A DNA stretch of 64,000 bases. Source: Eledone cirrhosa. Its lineage: Eukaryota. Shown in pieces: positions 5,913 to 26,577 of the stretch. Every line of letters starts with the position of its first letter. Position 1 is the first letter of the stretch. Under the pieces are notes generated by a model. The model worked only from the letters and a program-made list of their open reading frames with translations. It searched no databases and had not been told where the DNA came from. Made by a program: the position numbers and the translations under genes. The DNA is taken from assembly GCA_964016885.1 (NCBI GenBank), contig OZ024753.1:18724001-18788000 (forward strand). Direction: 5' to 3'.

Positions 5913-8401
5913 CTAGCTAACAGGTTTAAAGTAGAAGAAAGAGCTTAATATTCGGTGGGGGCAAGAGGAAAATATTTCAGACTTTCTATTTAGTAGAGGG
6001 CATTTAACAAATATAATAGAGTGGGATTCGGCAAGGCATAGGTTACATACTCTATTATGAGGAGTATATGGATGGGATTTAGCAACCTGCCGCCAAGTAA
6101 GTGTGTAATGTGTTCGTGCATTTTTTAAATTATGGACGTACGCTGCCAAGGAGGTGGAGTTCCTCAGTTTATTATGTCTAAAAGTGCATTGGTGAGAGTT
6201 AAACCTGGTCTTAAAGGGGGTGGAGGTTGATCCTATATAGGTCCTAGTGGACGCCGTAGTTACTACATCACACGCATAAACTATGTTTCTAACAAGGCAG
6301 AAACCATTCAGGGGGCAGCCTGAAGCCCTTCTACAGTTACAACCTCTGGTGATGCTATTCTCAGAATGATCACCACTTGTGTTTCTGCCCACTCTGTCCA
6401 CTATCGTGTTTTCCCCTAGGCTTAGGTTGTCCAGGCCTTCCTTTATTTTCTTATTATTAGTAATGGCCAGATGAGAGGCCAGATTTGGGGTTGTAGAATA
6501 CGAAAGTTTAACAACATTCTTATTGAGGATAGAGTGGTACCTATTACCAGGAGGGAAGTTCCTTTCTAACACAGAGAAGAAGGCCCTAGGAATATTTATA
6601 GCCACTTCAGAATTAAAAGGGGGGTTGAAGTATGTATTCAATCTTCTTCTATTCTTTTTATTCTTTCTATTTCCATCAGTATTATTAGCATTATTATTTC
6701 TACGGTTCCTATGCTCACCTAGTCTATGCGGGGAGCTGCGAGGCCTACCATTGCTATTACTTAGACTAATGGTGCCCTGCTGGTTCATTCCACCGGCATC
6801 TAGAAACCTCCCATTCGCGACACCTCTATTGCTATTACTTAGACTAATGGTGCCCTGCTGCTTCATTCCACCGGCATTTAGAACCCTCCCATTCGCGACA
6901 CCTCCATTACCAATGGACATATTATGTGTTATAACAACACTGGTAGAGCTACTATTAGGACTATTATTTCCCTGGGTGTAATACAATTTGTCCCTAAAGC
7001 CGGATCTAGCTAAGGCATCATTATAGTAATCAGCCTGCGAGTCAAACGCCTCCTCACTATGTGAGAGTGAACTTATTCTGTTAGATACGCCCTTCAGTAT
7101 ACCGCTGATGACCGACCTAGGGTGGTTAGAGTTGGTATTCACGTAATTCAGCAATTCATTAGGCTTATGGTACGGTGTGTACGTATGGTCATCCAAGTCC
7201 AATGTAACATCCAGGAAGTTCACAGTTCTATCATTTATATCCATAGTAATGGATAGGTTAAATGTTTTAAAAAAACTATGCAGCTTTTTCCTAATGCGCA
7301 CTATATTATACTTACTAGTATCTATGGAGAGTAGGGCGTCATCCCGGTACAACCCGCCCCTAAGGAAAGGGAAGTTACTATGCAGTTCATTGAGGAGGTA
7401 TAGCCCAACTAAGTCGGTGACTTGAGCAGAGTCACTCGACCCCATAGTAATGTCAAAATTATCAGGTGTGTTTTTTCTCGTCCATAGATTATCCTCAAAC
7501 ATGATAATGGTTTTACGTGCAGCGAGAACAATATCTATCTGTGGCCTTGTAATTGCCCCCCTCTGCATGGCTAGGATGAGGGCCTTATTGAGGATAATAG
7601 GAGATATAGATGTATAATAAGCATCAATATCAAATTGGATGAATTTGAGTGAGTCACGACCACAATCCGTAGAAAACCACGTAATGACCTCACTAGTGTT
7701 ACCCCAAAGCTCAAGGAAAGTTTTTTCTCTAACCAGGGGAATAACGCTATCCAAGATTCCCTTACTAATAATCCCCAGGTCAGACTTGGAGGGGCAGATA
7801 AGCCTAACCGAGGGTCTGCTAATAAAATCTTCCTTGTGGTCCTTGAGGGTGAATCTAGGCTGCTTGGGGTAATAAGGCTGAGTGTGTTTATCCAGACCTA
7901 GTTTTACCACTATGTTATACCCCTCCTGATTAATATTATCTAAATTACTCTGCGTTGTTTTTTTGTAGTTCCTATGTAGTTCATTATAAATGAAGCCTCG
8001 ATAGGTTTTATAATCCATACTATATAAGTTTTTAGTTTTGTCAGAGGGGACCAGGATGGATTTATTATCCCTAAAGTCCCTAACGATTGAACTTAGTTTA
8101 CTCTGAAATTTATTGGTACATCTAGATTTTTTATATTTAATATTCCTAACAAGGGATAATAGCTCACTTTCGAAGTTATCCAACAGGCTATTATGCGGGG
8201 GGCTCCTATAGGTCTTAAATCCATAATTATTAAAACTACGCCCCTCTTCAGGGCTATCATACTTCTTATCAAAATGGAACGCACGCCACCGAACACGTTT
8301 TACGAATGAGTTTATGCTAGTTATCAGTGATTTCTCATATGAGATTTTAGGGGGGTGGGAATATTCTTCAAGGAAATGGGTAAGTATGTCTTTGTTAGCA
8401 T
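5913..8401 (-). CDS. Naiad PLE reverse transcriptase + GIY-YIG endonuclease (~829 aa, one frameshift in a C6 run at 8350-8355)
   Basis: Naiad-type motifs: SLKNIPTP, KRVRWRAFHF, TLKDHKEDF, FDIDAYYTSI, MGSSDSAQVTDLVG, GLYRDD, FLDVTLDL, YFNPPF, CNC-x5-C-x5-C, IVY-x11-YIG, CNLCLAE, CPH. The track's 8507 start is a GTG with no in-frame ATG; the ATG at 8401 lies in the adjacent frame. Confidence 0.92.
6748..6904 (-). repeat. 78-bp in-frame tandem duplication (26 aa x2) in the RT-EN linker
   Basis: GVANGRVLNAGGMKQQGTISLSNSNR / GVANGRFLDAGGMNQQGTISLSNSNG. Also present in the inverted copy (~10771-10926). Confidence 0.9.
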
Positions 8402-8603
8402 ACTGCCTGATAATATACAAGGACACAAATCCGCGTATATCAAAGTTTAAGCTCAACCAGTGGGAGCTGTATAGTATACTAGGGAGAGGATCAGGGGTGT
8501 ATAACACTCCACTTATCCAGCAGGCAGTATAAGGTTAGCTCAATGTCTGAGGACAGAGCCGTGATATAATAAATAACAAAGAACGCCTATAGCATATGCA
8601 TAT

Positions 8604-8661
8604 CTTTACTTGCTAACATTGTTTCATCCGCACTATAGGTGGGACTCATCAGAGCATAAAG
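8604..8661 (-). ncRNA. Minimal type I hammerhead ribozyme (Naiad-1 5' pLTR)
   Basis: Reverse complement: ctttatgct-CTGATGA-gtcccacctatagtgcggat-GAAA-caatg-TT-agcaagtaaag. Stem I is tgct/agca plus cttta/taaag. Confidence 0.88.
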
Positions 8662-9662
8662 GTTAATTACATACCATACAAGCAATAACAAATCCAAGAC
8701 ATTGAAGAATGAAAAATAATAATAGACGATAAAGGATATTAAGGAAGTAAAAGTAAAGATAAAGATAAAGATAAGAATAAAAATAAAAATAAGATAATAA
8801 AATAAACAATGAAAAATAAGGGGTGCTATCAGTCACAGTTGGGCGGGGTGCTGTCAACATATAGTTACATACAAGCATACACATGGATAAGAGAACAGAC
8901 AAGAGTAGATAAGATAGATAGGATTAGGTAAGAGTAGGTAAAAAATAGGTGAAAAACAGACTTATAATATATATAAGAAAATATAAAGAAATACATAACA
9001 AACTTACATATAAAATATAAAATATACAGATAATAGTGATACAGGGTAAGGAATGAGATAAAATAATATAAAATTAAAATTAAAATTATATAAAATAGAA
9101 CATAATATAATATAATCATAAAATAAGATAAAATAAGGTAAACTAAAATAAAATAAAATAGACTAAATTAAAATAATATAATATAAGATATAATTAAATG
9201 TAATTAAATAAATAAATAAATAAATAAAGTTAAATAAAATTAAAATTAAAATTAAAATTAAATTTAAATAAATAAATAAATAAATAATTAAGTAAATTTA
9301 TAAATAAATAAATAAATAAATGGAATTAAATAAGTAAATAAATAAAATTAGATAACATGAAATGAAATAAAATAAAATAAAATGAAATAAAGTAAATTGA
9401 GATAGGATATATATTTTTTAGAATATATCTCTTGAATATATCAGGGGCCCACGAAGGCACTAAGTGTCACAGTTATGTGTATCACTTGACCATTTTTTTA
9501 AAACGTATTTCTTGAAAATATCAGGGGCCCACGAAGGCACTAAGTGTCACAGTCACCAGTATCACTTGACCATTGCAAGGCAATGGAGGCGTCCCAGGTT
9601 GGGCAGTCTCAAAAGTTCACTCGAAAGTCGCGGGTGTGCATTCACACAGTTGAGCGGTGGGG

Positions 9663-11761
9663 TATAAAACCTATCGATGCTTCATTTATAATGAACTACA
9701 TAGGAACTACAAAAAAACAACGCAGAATAATTTAGATAATATTAATCAGGAGGGGTATAACATAGTGGTAAAACTAGGTCTGGATAAACACACTCAGCCT
9801 TAATACCCCAAGCAGCCTAGATTCACCCTCAAGGACCACAAGGAAGATTTTATTAGCAGACCCTCGGTTAGGCTTATCTGCCCCTCCAAGTCTGACCTGG
9901 GGATTATTAGTAAGGGAATCTTGGATAGCGTTATTCCCCTGGTTAGAGAAAAAACTTTCCTTGAGCTTTGGGGTAACACTAGTGAGGTCATTACGTGGTT
10001 CTCTACGGATTGTGGTCGTGACTCACTCAAATTCATCCAATTTGATATTGATGCTTATTATACATCTATATCTCCTATTATCCTCAATAAGGCCCTCATC
10101 CTAGCCATGCAGAGGGGGGCAATTACAAGGCCACAGATAGATATTGTTCTCGCTGCACGTAAAACCATTATCATGTTTGAGGATAATCTATGGACGAAAA
10201 AAAACACACCTGATAATTTTGACATTACTATGGGGTCGAGTGACTCTGCTCAAGTCACCGACTTAGTTGGGCTATACCTCCTCAATGAACTGCATAGTAA
10301 CTTCCCTTTCCTTAGGGGCGGGTTGTACCGAGATGACGCCCTACTCTCCATAGATACTAGTAAGTATAATATAGTGCGCGTTAGGAAAAAGCTGCATAGT
10401 TTTTTTAAAACATTTAACCTATCCATTACTATGGATATAAATGATAGAACTGTGAACTTCCTGGATGTTACATTGGACTTGGATAACCATGCGTACACAC
10501 CGTACCATAAGCCTAATGAATTGCTGATTTACGTGAATACCAACTCTAACCACCCTAGGTCGGTCATCAGCGGTATACTGAAGGGCGTATCTAACAGAAT
10601 AAGTTCACTCTCACATAGTGAGGAGGCGTTTGCCTCGCAGGCTGATTACTATAATGATGCCTTAGCTAGATCCGGCTTTAGGGACAAATTGTATTACACC
10701 CAGGGAAATAATAGTCCTAATAGTAGCTCTACCAGTGTTGTTATAACACATAATATGTCCATTGGTAATGGAGGTGTCGCGAATGGGAGGGTTCTAAATG
10801 CCGGTGGAATGAAGCAGCAGGGCACCATTAGTCTAAGTAATAGCAATAGAGGTGTCGCGAATGGGAGGTTTCTAGATACCGGTGGAATGAACCAGCAGGG
10901 CACCATTAGTCTAAGTAATAGCAATGGTAGGCCTCGCAGCTCCCCGCATAGACTAGGTGAGCATAGGAACCGTAGAAATAATAATGCTAATAATACTGAT
11001 GGAAATAGAAAGAATAAAAAGAATAGAAGAAGATTGAATACATACTTCAACCACCCTTTTAATTCTGAAGTGGCTATAAATATTCCTAGGGCCTTCTTCT
11101 CTGTGTTAGAAAGGAACTTCCCTCCTGGTAATAGGTACCACTCTATCCTCAATAAGAATGTTGTTAAACTTTCGTATTCTACAACCCCAAATCTGGCCTC
11201 TCATCTGGCCATTACTAATAATAAGAAAATAAAGGAAGGCCTGGACAACCTAAGCCTAGGGGAAAACACGGTAGTGGACAGAGTGGGCAGAAACACAAGT
11301 GGTGATCATTCTGAGAATAGCATCACCAGAGGTTGTAACTGTAGAAGGGTTTCAGGCTGCCCCCTGAATGGTTTCTGCCTTGTTAGAAACATAGTTTATG
11401 CGTGTGATGTAGTAACTACGGCGTCCACTAGGACCTATATAGGATCAACCTCCACCCCCTTTAAGACCAGGTTTAACTCTCACCAATGCACTTTTAGACA
11501 TAATAAACTGAGGAACTCCCCTCCTTGGCAGCGTACGTCCATAATTTAAAAAATGCACGAACACATTACACACTTACTTGGCGGCAGGTTGCTAAATCCC
11601 ATCCATATACTCCTCATAATAGAGTATGTAACCTATGCCTTGCCGAATCCCACTCTATTATATTTGCTAAATGCCCTCTACTAAATAGAAAGACTGAAAT
11701 ATTTTCCTCTTGCCCCCACCGAATATTAAGCTCTTTCTTCTACTTTAAACCTGTTAGCTAG
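9663..11761 (+). pseudogene. 5'-truncated inverted copy of the Naiad-1 RT/EN ORF
   Basis: Matches the 5913-8010 protein. Nonsense TAA at ~9801 (TAT in copy A), 1-nt deletion frameshift at ~11520 in the endonuclease, NPPF>NHPF. Confidence 0.92.
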
Positions 11762-14412: not shown

Positions 14413-14612
14413 ATGTAGATAAATCTACCAAGAGTTTACGGTAGTGTCCAATCCGTATGAAGAACTCAATGTAATCCGGATATCATGGAAAGAAGAGATG
14501 CAATGAAAAATCACTTTCGGTGAAAGATAAACGGAATACAGAGTCAAGATAAAATATAAAAAAAAATAATGAATAAAACAATGAAACAGTTCTTTATATT
14601 AAACAAAAAAAG

Positions 14613-14766
14613 TTCATTATTTAACGATCGTTTCTGGGATATATATGTGTTAGAATTGGCATGTGTATTTAACAGATCTATGTACAAAATTATACAAAAT
14701 TATACAAACTATCAAAATTAAATATACATACCAACTCATATATATGCCGTCTTCAGAAATAATGAA
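14613..14766 (-). ncRNA. Type I hammerhead with ~115-nt extended stem II
   Basis: Reverse complement: ttcattattt-CTGAAGA-cggcatatatatgagtt...aacacatatatatccca-GAAA-cgatcg-TT-aaataatgaa. Perfect 10-bp stem I and palindromic stem III. Confidence 0.75.
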
Positions 14767-15359
14767 ATATATTTATTGATAATAACAACAATTCAAAATT
14801 ACAGGTCTGTTTGGGAACAGAGTTCAAATTGACCAATGGAAAAACAAAAAGTTTATACAGTTAGGTGTGTGTATATATGTAAGAAACTTCGTTCACAGAT
14901 ATGCATAAAAATATATGTTCACATGCATACGCATGCCGAAAAGATGTATGTAAATACAAAAATTCAGGGCTAATGTCTCTGTATGTTTATAATCTCAAAA
15001 TAAAATACATATACGCATATAAACATATAAATATAAAAATAAATATATACACATTCATATACTCACACATATACATACATTCACACACACACGCGCATAT
15101 ACGCATAAACATACACACAACCACGAACATACATACACACACACACTCACACACACATATATGTGTATATACTATTATCATAAGCATATGGACATTAATG
15201 CGCGCACATAAACACTGCCACACATATTTATAACCAGATACAGAAAGTAGGTGGGGGGGTGGGAGAGGTCAGTATTTACTGGTGTCAGCAAACTGCCTAT
15301 TTATAAATGTATCTATAAATTTAGAAATAAAAAGAAAAAGAAAAAAGAAAAATATTAAG

Positions 15360-15396
<37 letters not shown>

Positions 15397-15597
15397 AAGT
15401 AAAATATAAAATATACATCGATATACATACATATATATATATACATATATATATATATACATACATACACATATACATAAACACATACATACACATACAT
15501 ATACGTACACACACCATATATATACACATACACACACGCGCATACATATAGAGACACATACATATACACATATAAATACATAGACATATACATATAT

Positions 15598-15655
<58 letters not shown>

Positions 15656-15674
15656 ATATATACATACATTCACA

Positions 15675-15708
<34 letters not shown>

Positions 15709-15775
15709 CTATACACACATACATAAATACACTCATGTATATACACATATACACATACATACCCACACACATATA

Positions 15776-15831
<56 letters not shown>

Positions 15832-15902
15832 CACACATACACACACACATGTACACATACACATATACACAAATATATATATATATACACACACGTATAT
15901 AC

Positions 15903-15948
<46 letters not shown>

Positions 15949-16290
15949 TATATATACATACATACATATATATACTCATACATAGACATACATATATACA
16001 CGCACACATACACACATACATAAATAAAGGGATATACATACACACATATACATATATAAATAGAGATATATATACACATAAATATATACACACATACACA
16101 CACACACATATACATACATACATACATACATATACATACACACACACACACATATATATACATATATACATATATATACATATATACATATATATAAAAA
16201 TAAAGAAATAAAAAAATAAAAGAAATAAATAAATAAATAAATTAATACACCCAGTCAGACAAATATGCACACACATACATATATATATAT

Positions 16291-16345
<55 letters not shown>

Positions 16346-16501
16346 CATATACATATATATATATATATACACATACACACATCAACTACAAATATATATA
16401 TATATATATATACATGGAAAGTTATATTTCAATTGTTGGGTTACAACTAGTAAATATTTATAACTGATATAAAAGCACTCAACAAGTATTTGGAGTATAT
16501 T

Positions 16502-16880
16502 TACGATATCAAATAAATGGAAACTACATCTACAAAACCATATCTATCTCATCATATACATTTCAGGGACATCACATTAACAATATGCTACGCCTTCCTC
16601 AGACAAAACTCAATATAGACAGCTTTACAAATAAATAGATCTGACACACCGTTCAACATCGACCTATATTTGAAAAGCCGATTTGGCAGATCAACTGCCA
16701 AATCGGCTTTTCAAATAGAAGTCGATGCCGAACGGCATGTCAAATCCATTCATTTATAAAACTGTCCACACTGTACCTTGTCTGAGGAAGGCACAGCATA
16801 TTGTTAATATGACATCCCTGAAATATATATGATGAAACAGATATGGTTTTACAAATACAGCCTCCATCTATTTAATATCG

Positions 16881-16882
<2 letters not shown>
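16502..16882 (-). ncRNA. 188-bp G.U-rich long hairpin in the Naiad-2 3' UTR
   Basis: Gapless arms 16502-16689 / 16695-16882 with loop atcaa. By manual alignment: 153 Watson-Crick pairs, 33 G.U pairs (minus strand) and 2 mismatches. Confidence 0.9.
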
Positions 16883-16918
<36 letters not shown>

Positions 16919-16947
16919 CATATATATATATGTATATATATATATAC

Positions 16948-16978
<31 letters not shown>

Positions 16979-17095
16979 CACACACTCACATATACATGCA
17001 CATATACGTACATATATACACATACACACATATACACATAGACGTATACATGCGCATACATATACATACACACATATACCCACATAAATACATAG

Positions 17096-17160
<65 letters not shown>

Positions 17161-17329
17161 CAATCATACACCCTTATTTAGATGCGCACATATGTATTTT
17201 TATACTCACATACAAACACCCAAACATACATACCTACCTACATATACATACATTCATCCACGCTTACAAATACAAATAATAATAGGGGGGGGGGGGTGAT
17301 TATAGTAAATATAGGTTTCAAGAAACATA

Positions 17330-18380
17330 GAATATTAATCTGCATTTAGATCATAATATGTAGTAGTTTCAGTATTAGGAAATGTAAGAAAGAAGGCAAA
17401 ATTATGCATTTTAATATAAGTAGACTATTAATTATAGGTTAACTAAATTAAAGATAGTTAATATATTGATTTCTAAGGTGTATACTACTTAGGTTTATAA
17501 TATTTGAAGCGGAATTTTGAAGTTAAATAGTAGTAGAGTATTAATTATAGTATAACTAAATTAAAATTATTAACGTTATGGTATCAATATTAGGAAATGA
17601 ATTTAGTAATAGGGAAAAAAACCAAATAAAGTATTACATCGGTAGTAGAATATAAATTATAGGTTAACTAAATTAAAAATTATATATTAATTTCTATAGT
17701 ATATGTTAATTAGGTTTATAATAATTAAAACAGATATTGTATTTTATCTATAGTAGAATATAATTATAGGTAAACAAAAATTAAAATTAATATATACACT
17801 CATATATATTCATATATATATACATATATATATATACACATACATATATATATACATATTTTTTCAAAATTTGCAAAGAGTATATTAACTAGGTATACAT
17901 CTAAAACCTATCTCAGTCTATGATTACATGACACTCTGCAATCCATCTGTATTAGGATTTTAATTTTAAGCCGATTAAATTAAATTTTTAGGTTAACCAA
18001 CTTAAAACCAAATTATAAATATATTTCTAAATTGTACATTAATTAGGTCTATAATATTAAAAAATATTTCTCTGTCATCGAATACACGATATTTTGTTAT
18101 ATTTTATCTGTAAAGGAATTTTAATAAAAGGTTAAATAAATTAAAATTAATCTATAAATTAATTTACAAAGTATATATTAGTAATATTTAAAAGTTTTTC
18201 ACAATTTATGATTACACAATATTTTATAATCTGATCTGTAGTAGAATTTTAATTAAATTAAATTTATAGGTTAACTAACATTTAAATTAAATTATATATT
18301 AATATCTAAAATAATGTTATTAATTAGGTTTATAATATTTAAATGTTTTTCTTAGTTTATGATTACACGATATAATTAAT
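17330..18380 (-). repeat. Degenerate ~110-140-bp tandem array (about 7 units) containing the ORF end
   Basis: aattataggttaactaaattaaa recurs at ~17430, 17543, 17655, 17762, 17985, 18122 and 18261, each with taggtttataatatt / tatgattacac pieces of the last codons. Confidence 0.7.
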
Positions 18381-19110
18381 TCCTGTCGTTTATTTAATAG
18401 GATATCCTTAGATTTCATTATTTCAAATAGTTCTTGGGAACATAATCTACATTCATTTCTATTATTTTGATAAGGGGTGGCTCTTTTGAGCACACTCCAG
18501 GTCATATCATATTTTATATTCTTATTTTTATAACTATTGATTTTTTCTGCTAGAGATGTTGTATTAGCCAGTGCGGCATTTTTAAAACTATGTTTGTGGG
18601 TATTAAACCTTACCTTAAAATTGTTAGAAGTAGCTCCTATATATGAGCAAATAGAATCTTTAGTTTTAACATTACATTTATAAACTATGTTGTTAACAAG
18701 ACAATTTCCTTTTAATGGGCAGTTTGCTTTGTTTCTACAGTTACAACCTTTCGTTAATTCTGTATTTCAGGAGATATTATGGTTAGTTTGATGTATTGGT
18801 GGTATACTTATGGTATTCTTACATTTATATGCATTATAGGCACTTATATTTTGTTTTATGTTATTGGTTGTTGAGTATGAGAATTTAACTGTAGACCTAT
18901 TTAAGATTTGATGGTATTTGTGGTTTGGCGGGAAGTTTTTCTCTAGGATATAAAAACATTTTTTAGCAATATTATCTTTAATTTGTAAATTAAATTGAGC
19001 ATTATACCAAGTAACTCGTCTATTACGGTTTCTATGTTGTTTATTATTTTTATAGGTTGTATCGTGGTGTTTACTAGGAGGATTAATGTTAATGACATCA
19101 CCCCGCACAT
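18320..19110 (-). pseudogene. Naiad-2 linker + GIY-YIG endonuclease (5'-truncated, one in-frame TGA at 18767-18769)
   Basis: RRVTWYNAQF, ILNRSTVKFSYSTT, GCNCRNKANCPLKGNCLVNNIVY...YIG, CRLCSQE, CNH. Track ORFs 18767-19108 and 18320-18505 are in the same frame. Confidence 0.88.
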
Positions 19111-19333
19111 TTTAAATGTATATGATGAGATAGATATGGTTTTGTAGATGTAGTTTCCATTTATTTGATATCGTAAATATACTCCAAATACTTGTTGAGT
19201 GCTTTTATATCAGTTATAAATATTTACTAGTTGTAACCCAACTATTTAAATATAACTTTCCATGTATATATATATATATATATTTGTAGTTGATGTGTGT
19301 ATGTGTATATATATATATATATGTATGTATATG

Positions 19334-19392
<59 letters not shown>

Positions 19393-19508
19393 GTGTATAT
19401 ATATATATGTATGTGTGCATATTTGTCTGACTGGGTGTATTAATTAATTTCTTTCTTTCTTTCTTTTATTTTTTTATTTCTTTATTTTTATATATATGTA
19501 TATATATG

Positions 19509-19541
<33 letters not shown>

Positions 19542-19811
19542 GTGTGTGTGTATGTATATGTATGTATGTATGTGTATGTATATGTGTGTGTGTGTACGTG
19601 TGTATATATTTATATGTGTATATAAGTATATATGTATATGTATATCCCTTTATTTATGTATGTCTGAGTTGTGTGAGCGTGTGGTTGTGTTTGTATGTGT
19701 ATACGCATACATGGATGTGTATGTATGTGTATATATGCGTATATGTATGTGTGTATGTGTGCGTGTATATATGTATGTCTATGTATGAGTATATATATGT
19801 ATGTATGTATA

Positions 19812-19853
<42 letters not shown>

Positions 19854-19914
19854 GTATATACGTGTGTGTATATATATCTTTGCGTATATGTGTATGTGTA
19901 CATGTGTGTGTGTG

Positions 19915-19945
<31 letters not shown>

Positions 19946-19946
19946 G

Positions 19947-19980
<34 letters not shown>

Positions 19981-20260
19981 TGTGTGGGTATGTATGTGTA
20001 TATGTGTATATACATGAGTGGATTTATGTATGTGTGTATAGATATATATATATATATGTGTGTTGTGAATGTATGTATATACGTATGTATATATATATAT
20101 ATATATATGTGTGTATATATGTATATGTCTATGTATTTATATGTGTAAATGTATGTGTCTCTATATGTATGAGCGTGTGTGTATGTGTATGTGTATATAT
20201 ATGGTGTGTGTATGTATATGTATGTGTATGTATGTGTTTATGTATATGTGTATGTATATG

Positions 20261-20311
<51 letters not shown>

Positions 20312-20977
20312 GTATGTATATCGATGTATATTTTATATTTTACTTGTTTATATATATATATATAAATATATATATACTTAATATTTTTCTTTTTTCTTTT
20401 TCTGTTTATTTCTAAATTTATAGATACATTTATGAATAGGCAGTTTGCTGACACCAGTAAATACTGACCTCTTCTCCCCCCCCCCCCTCCCACCTACTTT
20501 CTGTATCTGGATCTAAATATGTGTGGCAGTGTTTATGTGCGAGCATTAATGTCCATATGCTTATGATAATAGTATATACACATATATGTGTGTGTGAGTG
20601 TGTGTGTATATGTATGTTCGTGGTTGTGTGTATGTTTATGCGTATATGCGCGTGTGTGTGTGAATGTATGTATATGTGTGAGTATATGAATGTGTATATA
20701 TTTATTTTTATATTTATATGTTTATATGCGTATATGTATTTTATCTGTAGATTATAAACATACAGAGACATTAGCCCTGAATTTTTGTATTTACATACAT
20801 CTTTTCGGCATGCGTATGCATGTGAACATATATTTTTATGCATATCTGTGAACGAAGTTACTTGCATATATACACACACCTAACTGTATAAACTTTTTGT
20901 GTTTCCATTGGTCAATTTGAACTCTGTTCCCAAACAGACCTGTAATTTTGAATTGTTGTTATTATCAATAAATATAT

Positions 20978-21131
20978 TTCATTATTTCTGAAGACGGCAT
21001 ATATATGAGTTGGTATGTATATTTAATTTTGATAGTTTGTATAATTTTGTATAATTTTGTATATAGATCTGTTAAATATACATGCCAATTCTAACACATA
21101 TATATCCCAGAAACGTTCGTTAAATAATGAA
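20978..21131 (+). ncRNA. Long-stem-II hammerhead, inverted-arm copy
   Basis: ttcattattt-CTGAAGA-cggc...ccca-GAAA-cgttcg-TT-aaataatgaa; the stem III palindrome has one change. Confidence 0.7.
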
Positions 21132-21189
21132 CTTTTTTTGTTTAATATAAGGAACTGTTTCATTGTTTTATTCATTATTTTTTTTAATA

Positions 21190-22350
21190 TTTTATATAAA
21201 TATATATATACATATAAATATATAAATACATATATAAATATATATATACATATATAAATATATATATACATATATAAATATATATATACATATATAAATA
21301 TATATATACATATATAAATATATATATACATATATAAATATATATATACATATATAAATATATATATACATATATAAATATATATATATAAATATAAATA
21401 TATATATACATATATAAATATAATATATATATACATATATATACATATATAAATATATATATACATATATAAATATATATATACATATATAAATATATAT
21501 ATACATATATAAATATATATATACATATATAAATATATATATACATATATAAATATATATATACATATATAAATATATATATACATATATAAATATATAT
21601 ATACATATATAAATATATATATACATATATATATATAAATATACATATATAAATATATATATACATATATATATATAAATATATATATATAAATATATAT
21701 ATACATATATAAATATATATATACATATATATATAAATATATATATACATATATAAATATATATATACATATATAAATATATATATACATATATATATAT
21801 AAATATACATATATAAATATATATATACATATATATATATATAAATATACGTATATATATATAAATATACATATATATATATAAATATACATATATATAT
21901 ATAAATATACATATATATATATAAATATACATATATATATATAAATATACATATATATATATAAATATACATATATAAATATACATATATATATATATAA
22001 ATATACATATATATATATAAATATACATATATAAATATACATATATAAATATACATATATATAAATATATATATATATATATAAATATATATATACATAT
22101 ATAAATATATATATACATATATAAATATATATATACATATATAAATATATATATATAAATATATATATACATATATAAATATATATATATATATATAAAT
22201 ATATATATATATAAATATATATATACATAAATATATATATACATATATAAATATATATATACATATATAAATATATATATACATATATAAATATATATAT
22301 ACATATATAAATATATATATACATATATAAATATATATATACATATATAA

Positions 22351-22387
<37 letters not shown>

Positions 22388-22390
22388 AAT

Positions 22391-22421
<31 letters not shown>

Positions 22422-22460
22422 AATATATATATATAAATATATATATACATATATAAATAT

Positions 22461-22511
<51 letters not shown>

Positions 22512-22658
22512 AATATATATATATAAACATATATATACATATATAAATATATATATACATATATAAATATATATATACATATATAAATATATATATACAT
22601 ATATAAATATATATATACATATATAAATATATATATACATATATAAATATATATATAC

Positions 22659-22689
<31 letters not shown>

Positions 22690-23026
22690 AATATATATAT
22701 ACATATATAAATATATATATACATATATAAATATATATATACATATATAAATATATATATATATATATAAATATATATATACATATATAAATATATATAT
22801 ATATATATAAATATATATATACATATATAAATATATATATACATATATAAATATATATATATATATAAATATATATATACATATATAAATATATATATAT
22901 ATAAATATATATATATACATATATAAATATATATATACATATATATATATACATATATAAATATATATATACATATATATATATAAATATATATATACAT
23001 ATATAAATATATATATATATATATGA

Positions 23027-23065
<39 letters not shown>

Positions 23066-23654
23066 AATACATATATATATATAAATATATATATATACAT
23101 ATATATATATAAATATATATATACATATATAAATATATATATATATATAAATATATATATATAAATATATATATACATATATAAATATATATATACATAT
23201 ATAAATATATATATATATATATAAATATATATATACATATATAAATATATATATACATATATAAATATATATATACATATATAAATATATATATACATAT
23301 ATAAATATATATATATATATATAAATATATATATACATATATAAATATATATATACATATATAAATATATATATACATATATAAATATATATATACATAT
23401 ATAAATATATATATACATATATAAATATATATATACATATTTAAATATAAATATATATATACATATTTAAATATATATATACATATATATATATAAATAT
23501 ATATATATATAAATATATATACATATATATATATAAATATATATATAAAAATAAATATAAATATATATATAAAAATAAATATAAATATATATATAAAAAT
23601 AAATATAAATATATAGATATATAAATATATATATATATAGATATATAAATATAT

Positions 23655-23685
<31 letters not shown>

Positions 23686-23686
23686 A

Positions 23687-23739
<53 letters not shown>

Positions 23740-24412
23740 AATATATATATAAATATATATATAAATATATATATAAATATATATATAAATATATATATAA
23801 ATATATATATAAATATATATATATAGATATATATATATAAATATATATATATAAATATATATATAAATATATATATATAAATATATATATAAATATATAT
23901 ATATATATAAATATATAAATATATATATAGATATATATATAAATATATATATATAAATATATATATATAAATATATATATATAAATATATATATATAAAT
24001 ATATATATAAATATATAAATATATATATACATATATAAATATATATATACATATATAAATATATATATATAAATATATATATACATATATAAATATATAT
24101 ATACATATATAAATATATATATACATATATAAATATATATATATAAATATATATATACATATATAAATATATATATACATATATATACATATATATAAAT
24201 ATATATATACATATATAAATATATATATATATATATAAATATATATATATATAAATATATATATACATAAATATATATATACATATATAAATATATATAT
24301 ACATATATAAATATATATATACATATATAAAGATATATATACATATATAAATATATATATACATATATAAATATATATATATACATATATAAATATATAT
24401 ATATATATAAAT

Positions 24413-24443
<31 letters not shown>

Positions 24444-24482
24444 AATATATATATATAAATATATATATACATATATAAATAT

Positions 24483-24533
<51 letters not shown>

Positions 24534-24756
24534 AATATATATATATAAACATATATATACATATATAAATATATATATACATATATAAATATATATATAC
24601 ATATATAAATATATATATACATATATAAATATATATATACATATATAAATATATATATACATATATAAATATATATATATATATATATAAATATATATAT
24701 ACATATATAAATATATATATACATATATAAATATATATATACATATATAAATATAT

Positions 24757-24789
<33 letters not shown>

Positions 24790-24814
24790 AATATATATAT
24801 ACATATATAAATAT

Positions 24815-24845
<31 letters not shown>

Positions 24846-25527
24846 AATATATATATACATATATAAATATATATATATATAAATATATATATATACATAT
24901 ATAAATATATATATACATATATATATATACATATATAAATATATATATACATATATAAATATATATATATATATATATGAATATATATATATATATAAAT
25001 ATATATATACATATATATATATAAATACATATATATATATAAATATATATATATACATATATATATATAAATATATATATACATATATAAATATATATAT
25101 ATATATAAATATATATATATAAATATATATATACATATATAAATATATATATACATATATAAATATATATATATATATATAAATATATATATACATATAT
25201 AAATATATATATACATATATAAATATATATATACATATATAAATATATATATACATATATAAATATATATATACATATATAAATATATATATACATATTT
25301 AAATATAAATATATATATACATATTTAAATATATATATACATATATATATATAAATATATATATATATAAATATATATATACATATATATATATATAAAT
25401 ATATATAAATAAATAAATATATAAAATAATATAAATATATATAAAAATAAATATAAATATATATATAAAAAAAATATAAATATATATATAAAAATAAATA
25501 TAAATATATAGATATATAAATATATAT

Positions 25528-25578
<51 letters not shown>

Positions 25579-25579
25579 A

Positions 25580-25610
<31 letters not shown>

Positions 25611-25912
25611 AATATATATAAATATATATATAAATATATATATAAATATATATATAAATATATATATATAGATATATATATAAATATATATATATAAATA
25701 TATATATAAATATATATATATAAATATATATATAAATATAAATATATAAATATATATATAGATATATATATAAATATATATATATAAATATATATATATA
25801 AATATACATATATAAATATATATATATAAATATATATATAAATATATAAATATATATATATAAATATATATATATAAATATATATATATAAATATATAAA
25901 TATATATATATA

Positions 25913-25988
<76 letters not shown>

Positions 25989-25998
25989 AATATAATAT

Positions 25999-26029
<31 letters not shown>

Positions 26030-26070
26030 AATATATATAAATATATATATAAATATATATATATATATAA

Positions 26071-26129
<59 letters not shown>

Positions 26130-26132
26130 AAT

Positions 26133-26165
<33 letters not shown>

Positions 26166-26166
26166 A

Positions 26167-26221
<55 letters not shown>

Positions 26222-26240
26222 AATATATATATAAATATAT
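21190..26240. repeat. ~5-kb TA-based satellite with a ~1.9-2.0-kb internal higher-order duplication
   Basis: 20-mer atatatatacatatataaat and variants. Rare markers repeat (ttaaatataa at 23441/25299, aaacat at ~22526/~24548). Confidence 0.9.
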
Positions 26241-26577
26241 ATAATATAAGATCAAAAGATGGTTAAAGGAGTTCCATGTATTTTATTATGCGCATTTCAA
26301 AAACAAACATCATCATGCAATAATATTTGTGTTTTCATCAGATAAAACAGGAGAACATGATATGAAGGCTAAAAAACACTTGTGGATAGTGCAGTTTTAA
26401 ATCAACATATGTTGATTTAAAACTGCACTATCCACAAGTGTTTTTTAGCCTTCATATCATGTTCTCCTGTTTTATCTGATGAAAACACAAATATTATTGC
26501 ATGATGATGTTTTTTTTTTGAAATGCGCATAATAAAATACATGGAACTCCTTTACCCATCTTTTGATCTTATATTAT
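26241..26577. repeat. Loopless ~168-bp-arm palindrome
   Basis: Centre aatcaacatatgttgatt at ~26409, with two transversion differences between the arms. Confidence 0.92.

Follow-up and report, generated by a model that had tools for sequence, protein, structure and literature searches.

By the window we mean the whole 64,000-nt stretch of Eledone cirrhosa DNA that was analysed. Within it, the 3' region of one PLE, termed the host below, contains the 3' end of a second PLE standing as two inverted copies, which form the arms of a 188-bp hairpin, and an inverted fragment of the host lies beside its truncated ORF (Table 1). Read by eye, the host motifs are CNCRNKANC, CRLC and CNH with no CCHH, and by this reading the host matches a Hydra-clade PLE; Pfam returned no family for the host EN remnant or for the neighbouring 873-aa ORF. 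The initial annotation had labelled the element Naiad-2, an identity that we set aside because an N-terminal GIY-YIG would be expected of Naiad (PMC8557442), whereas the GIY-YIG of the host is C-terminal and accompanied by the Hydra-clade motifs CxCx5C, CxxC and CxH. Elsewhere in the window, another Hydra-clade PLE spans positions 5913-11549. Its minus strand contains an open frame of 873 aa, and an inverted copy, 99% identical, stands head to head with it (arms 6156-8017 and 9658-11519). Read-through transcription would yield a 1.9-kb duplex, which apparently shows no hyper-editing. Nearly pure satellite of (TA)n type fills ~5 kb at positions 21180-26280. At locus L039 (900-1290), a copy of the host PLE terminates next to a probable 18S rRNA gene 5' end, which we take to be such from recognition by eye.

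Table 1. The hairpin, the nested insertion and the host element in window coordinates
Feature	Position	Strand	Remarks
Host Hydra-clade PLE 3' region, microsatellite-rich	14415..18319	-	Hairpin lies inside one (TA)n tract
Nested insertion, unpaired tail (87 nt)	16415..16501	-	T>C at 0/32 T
Left arm (3' arm of minus-strand RNA)	16502..16689	-	3' end of second Hydra-clade PLE in sense orientation; 15 one-arm A>G
Candidate type I hammerhead motif, left arm	16538..16618	-	CUGAGGA, stem II, GAAA; fold and motif scan
Edit-free loop-proximal zone	16667..16717		Two both-arm changes, 16678/16706 and 16679/16705
5-nt loop, the head-to-head arm junction	16690..16694		Differs between copies
Right arm (5' arm of minus-strand RNA)	16695..16882	+	That 3' end again, as an inverted copy; 18 one-arm changes, T>C on plus (A>G on minus)
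Candidate mirror hammerhead motif, right arm	16766..16846	+	Fold and motif scan
5'-truncated host ORF remnant	18320..19113	-	Linker, CxCx5C, GIY-YIG, CxxC, CxH; one in-frame stop
Inverted 5'-truncated copy of host 3' region	19114..21177	+	Begins within the hairpin's left arm; same 6 edits

Gapless alignment of 16502-16689 with the reverse complement of 16695-16882 pairs the 188-bp arms with 35 differences, namely 18 A/G, 15 C/T, a T/A at 16610 and an A/C at 16666. This recount (18 + 15 + 2) agrees with the initial annotation, as does the perfect pairing of the inner 23 bp of the stem, which the same alignment reproduces. Also as described there, all 33 of the A/G and C/T differences form G·U pairs on the minus strand and none do so on the plus strand (33 vs 0, binomial p 2e-10), and the folding of both strands that it had proposed as a check bears out the asymmetry: minus-strand RNA is predicted to fold as a single unbroken rod at -282.9 kcal/mol (z -32), against -191.6 kcal/mol for the plus strand. 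Two readings had been offered for this pattern. Either ADAR edits were written into the genome by the PLE RT, or the element carries a selected hpRNA-like module, in which G·U pairs would be kept either as a source of siRNA targeting a captured sequence or as a means of countering palindrome instability at the DNA level. The unbroken minus-strand rod is consistent with such a module; nevertheless, evidence from related copies, set out below, favours the first reading and makes the second extremely unlikely.

Family comparison identifies the arm as the last ~275 nt of what its motifs indicate to be an autonomous Hydra PLE. Single arms run on into a 1.5-kb 3' region, beyond which a Hydra-type ORF is found in 5/8 long loci; the donor motifs, again read by eye, are CNCRDRSKC, CDLC and CKH, with no CCHH, a DKT motif is present (L216), and motif reading of sibling ORFs of both host and donor places RT ahead of a C-terminal GIY-YIG. 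A captured gene as siRNA target is rejected accordingly, the arm being a transposon 3' end that continues into the Hydra ORF. A search with the tail pattern gave 1749 matches, from the beginning of which 59 loci were taken; five others in that stretch, already part of the data set, were passed over. Four of these five fall within the edited second lineage described below, so that edited elements make up 4 of 65 consecutive entries of the list. Among the 60 elements thus sampled without bias for editing, 38 have a single arm and 22 a second, inverted one whose length varies, and none of the 60 contains a hyper-edited or G·U-rich hairpin, contrary to what a selected module would suggest. Because 22 of 60 elements carry an inverted second arm and the arm continues into a Hydra ORF, the hairpin reads as the usual head-to-head arrangement of inserted PLEs, which are tailed at one end (PMC8557442). 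In the arm donor, the predicted hammerhead comprises a core together with stems I and II, and related families show variant pairs in the stems. At 16553 and 16831, an inherited variant would change the predicted cleavage triplet from AUA to AUG, and the 16553 variant also occurs in other, unedited copies. An Rfam scan of three loci (L001, L004 and L016) gave no hammerhead among the 150 of 168 matches listed, all of which fell under the gathering score and mainly concerned microRNA models.

The insertion is not a regular part of its host. This hairpin is absent among the listed alignments of the 19 nearest host siblings, most of which have an empty (TA)n site, and one of which (L045) carries a different, single-arm insertion. 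The initial annotation had named absence from other UTRs as a refutation of its account; the hairpin is indeed missing from most hosts, by which an element-borne module falls, while editing does not. Locus L106 (6215-6676) contains an unedited perfect hairpin adjoining the host (TA)n, and likely represents the pre-editing state. The (TA)n of the host is itself interrupted, at window positions 15350-17250 and 19270-20400, by C in antisense and by G in sense orientation; repeated cycles of editing could gradually turn self-pairing (UA)n into (UG)n.

To polarise the arm differences, 40 of the 2923 candidates from a DNA search were scored and 30 were taken, giving 29 copies besides the window. Against the majority of these 29, each of the 33 G·U differences is a one-arm T>C on the plus strand, equivalent to A>G in minus-strand RNA. 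Thirty-one of the changes occur in none of the other 29 copies, and the remaining two occur in one copy each. With L009 and L020 left out, arm differences in the other 27 copies amount to 0-2 per 170 bp. A conserved G·U-rich stem, as an hpRNA endo-siRNA locus would have, was thus sought and rejected, the other copies being near-perfect palindromes, and a C>U origin of the G·U pairs was rejected at 0/33 after polarisation, although selection for G·U would have allowed C>U as well.

The changes are also confined to the duplex. In the window hairpin, 33/138 stem As (roughly one in four) are edited, none of 32 positions is changed in the unpaired tail of the insertion, and the host sequence has one private T>C among 721 T (1746 columns compared with 13 siblings). 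Sorted by their 5' neighbour, stem As are edited at 18/54 sites after U, 13/44 after A, 2/20 after C and 0/20 after G, so that, as initially noted, no changed A follows a G (0/20 vs 33/118 of the remaining stem As; Fisher p 0.004). Two further G·U hairpins of related families, recovered with an edit-selecting pattern and polarised by their partner arms, have 42/44 (L150) and 23/24 (L145) arm mismatches of one polarity; when they are pooled with the window, 1/44 sites with a 5' G is edited (p 3e-5). Depletion of upstream G is an ADAR signature across metazoans (PMC5625713), and the genome contains A_deamin-domain (PF02137) matches at four places, a domain match that does not distinguish ADAR, ADAD and ADAT1. 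The last edit lies 25 (window), 25 (L150) and 26 (L145) aligned bases from the inner end, and this ~25-bp edit-free end may reflect either ADAR sparing the loop end or a later template switch that perfected the inner stem. A footprint of one-way A>G changes, confined to dsRNA and depleted in 5' G, most likely represents ADAR hyper-editing.

A process acting on DNA or at the RT step, whether deamination of a cruciform or biased misincorporation through the stem, would dispense with RNA editing and would account for changes limited to a palindrome that is able to fold as DNA. We nonetheless consider it very unlikely: a cruciform exposes two strands whereas all changes lie on one, cytidine deaminases yield G>A or C>T (PMC4866542), avoidance of a 5' G is a property of ADAR, and polarity tracks the sense strand of the host in both the window and the second lineage.

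The inverted copy of the host 3' region bears the same edits. Positions 19114-19262 match 16415-16563 at 147/149 sites; all 6 edits of the overlap are present, and both differences fall within the unpaired tail, in keeping with the earlier remark that the start of the left arm recurs here unchanged. No other copy with the edit set of the window was found in DNA, inner-stem-variant or haplotype searches, and the main and inverted copies therefore likely derive from a single edited RNA molecule or the cDNA made from it; the alternative source would be a lost donor with genomic edits. In the inner-stem variant search, the changes at 16678/16706 and 16679/16705 were present at the window locus alone in the genome. 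An editing-blind search with the host/arm junction returned 31 matches, with no unedited version of the window hairpin among them, and among 24 matches to the 16544/16553 haplotype only the window showed linkage to the host. These searches covered this assembly; they would not have picked up a donor whose (TA)n is longer or one absent from the assembled sequence. As no unedited donor locus was found, the pre-edit state is deduced from the partner arm and the family.

The same 31 junction matches brought out a second edited lineage, since they comprise the two in the window, 23 hairpins with a short left arm, two truncated copies with the same edits and four others, of which two are unedited single arms and two end in the tail. 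With an edit-biased search added, 33 copies with the short-arm junction were available, 26 of them full length, some being pairs from one insertion. Across the 26 full copies, T>C changes occur at 47/87 stem T positions vs 0/60 in the tail and loop (p 2e-14). The loop of this lineage is the inner right arm, which is unpaired and unedited here but paired and edited in the window copy, and which therefore provides an internal control for duplex dependence. The stem sites divide into 28 near-fixed and 19 variable ones, the opposite transition (A>G) being variable at 3/87 in the same stem (p 2e-6), and several variable sites fall in nested subsets of copies. Near-fixed together with variable stem-only sites point to inheritance and re-editing, and the second lineage likely stems from an edited founder that kept moving and underwent further editing; some of the variable sites could be reversions or products of recombination between copies. 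That at least 26 copies retain the edited hairpin speaks for a selected module to the extent that a later benefit is possible.

Long perfect hairpins can trouble sequencing, and an assembly or base-calling artefact might be suspected within the hairpin. Such an artefact is scarcely credible given that the same 28 changes recur across 26 copies on many contigs, that the isolated inverted fragment has the same 6 edits, and that other perfect hairpins examined are free of such edits.

The window and second lineages are probably independent. In a tree of host 3' regions, the window host groups with empty siblings (support 90/87), in a weak tree in which 21/46 branches are open and the second lineage is not recovered as one clade; moreover, the window lacks 16/28 near-fixed sites of the second lineage as one-arm edits. 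On these grounds, together with arm variants, the window lineage is taken as independent. Within the shared region, 12/20 window edits coincide with the 28 near-fixed sites (p 0.003), which may reflect either hot spots or shared ancestry.

Related elements offer further variations. Locus L117 has 7 T>C changes that are identical on both arms, as expected if an edited arm had been duplicated anew; L117, L099 and L101 are all fold-backs in which the same T>C clusters stand on both arms, as if the edited arm had been copied twice. In L143 (1170-1660; G000:C4:244.57 Mb), a related element shows heavy one-arm T>C through the tail, corresponding to antisense A>G, a pattern that implies a longer duplex with another copy.

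Building on the observed structure, nesting, polarity, confinement, neighbour context and sharing between copies, we propose that the 33 one-way A>G changes were very probably made by ADAR on read-through RNA of a nested head-to-head PLE and fixed by reverse transcription. First, as family comparison shows, the 3' end of the Hydra PLE often inserts as two 5'-truncated copies back to back, producing a perfect palindrome. Second, in the window it lies within a host (TA)n tract at which most siblings have no insertion. Third, a host transcript crossing the palindrome would fold into the 188-bp duplex, and ADAR would deaminate 33 of its 138 stem As. Fourth, the host RT would read I as G, and the edited RNA would be integrated at this locus. 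Finally, a parallel edited composite seems to have stayed mobile and, by the pattern of its copies, gained more stem-only A>G changes, for which further editing would be the cause. For this sequence of events we infer that the element was transcribed, that ADAR was the enzyme, that the host RT carried out the reverse transcription and that the timing was germ-line.

We also lean, with less assurance, towards a broader view of ADAR as a recurring germline mutagen of PLEs, in which fold-back duplexes would acquire new edits at each retrotransposition, composites would remain mobile and be re-edited, edited arms would be re-duplicated, and edits would serve as barcodes of one template. Were this view correct, edited arms would be re-duplicated into perfect, G-C-richer palindromes, and the edits would barcode single RNA molecules, both head-to-head PLE copies deriving from one template. 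The proposed origin would mean that RNA editing can lead to heritable DNA change in a non-viral setting, and in an animal in which such editing is generally regarded as confined to RNA; it implies that ADAR encounters retroelement RNA in the germ line. It would also supply a natural barcode with which to trace how PLEs build their inverted ends, and the edits would document which sites ADAR prefers on long duplexes. Additionally, some genomic A/G differences among repeat copies would be old edits, which could confound editing calls and repeat dating.

Among known systems, the Drosophila hpRNA endo-siRNA precursors are likewise long G·U-rich hairpins; the hairpin described here differs in that its G·U pairs arose through A>G alone, in few copies and as a transposon by-product. 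The elements themselves resemble the C-terminal EN+ PLEs of the Hydra clade, in which the pLTR is inverted and a tail is present (Craig et al., PMC8557442). Shared features are a C-terminal GIY-YIG, CxCx5C and the absence of CCHH, DKT in the arm donor, (TA)n insertion, an inverted 5'-truncated copy and a single terminal tail, and the arm donor has a candidate hammerhead where those elements carry one. The nested element has a tail of 87 nt, vs 30-40 there, and the sections of that report consulted describe no editing and contain the word 'hairpin' 0 times. In our search of the openly accessible literature, there was no report of ADAR edits fixed in germline PLE copies. Transcriptome hyper-editing of coleoid repeats (PMC5625713) and of lizard Penelope (PMC9068888) is alike in that ADAR heavily edits repeat-derived dsRNA with depletion of upstream G, but those edits are RNA-only, whereas the edits here stand in DNA. 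Deaminase footprints kept in genomic retroelements are known from APOBEC DNA-edited LTR retrotransposons (Knisbacher and Levanon PMC4866542, Zaranek et al. PMC2873906), where they are G>A changes on cDNA of vertebrate LTR elements, reported absent from 19 invertebrates; 'ADAR' has 0 mentions in the main text of PMC4866542. The PLE footprint, being A>G and confined to RNA duplexes, would be the RNA-side counterpart of these APOBEC-edited LTR copies. The closest precedent that we found in print is the A>G hypermutation of avian retroviruses, of ADAR type, in the U3 of Rous-associated virus and in an inverted repeat of avian leukosis virus (Felder 1994, Hajjar and Linial 1995, cited in PMC12925331). 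In these viruses, as here, clusters of A>G changes in an inverted repeat were recorded as DNA after reverse transcription; here, by contrast, the element is an endogenous, non-viral PLE in chromosomal DNA, of which one edited lineage has been amplified and apparently re-edited.
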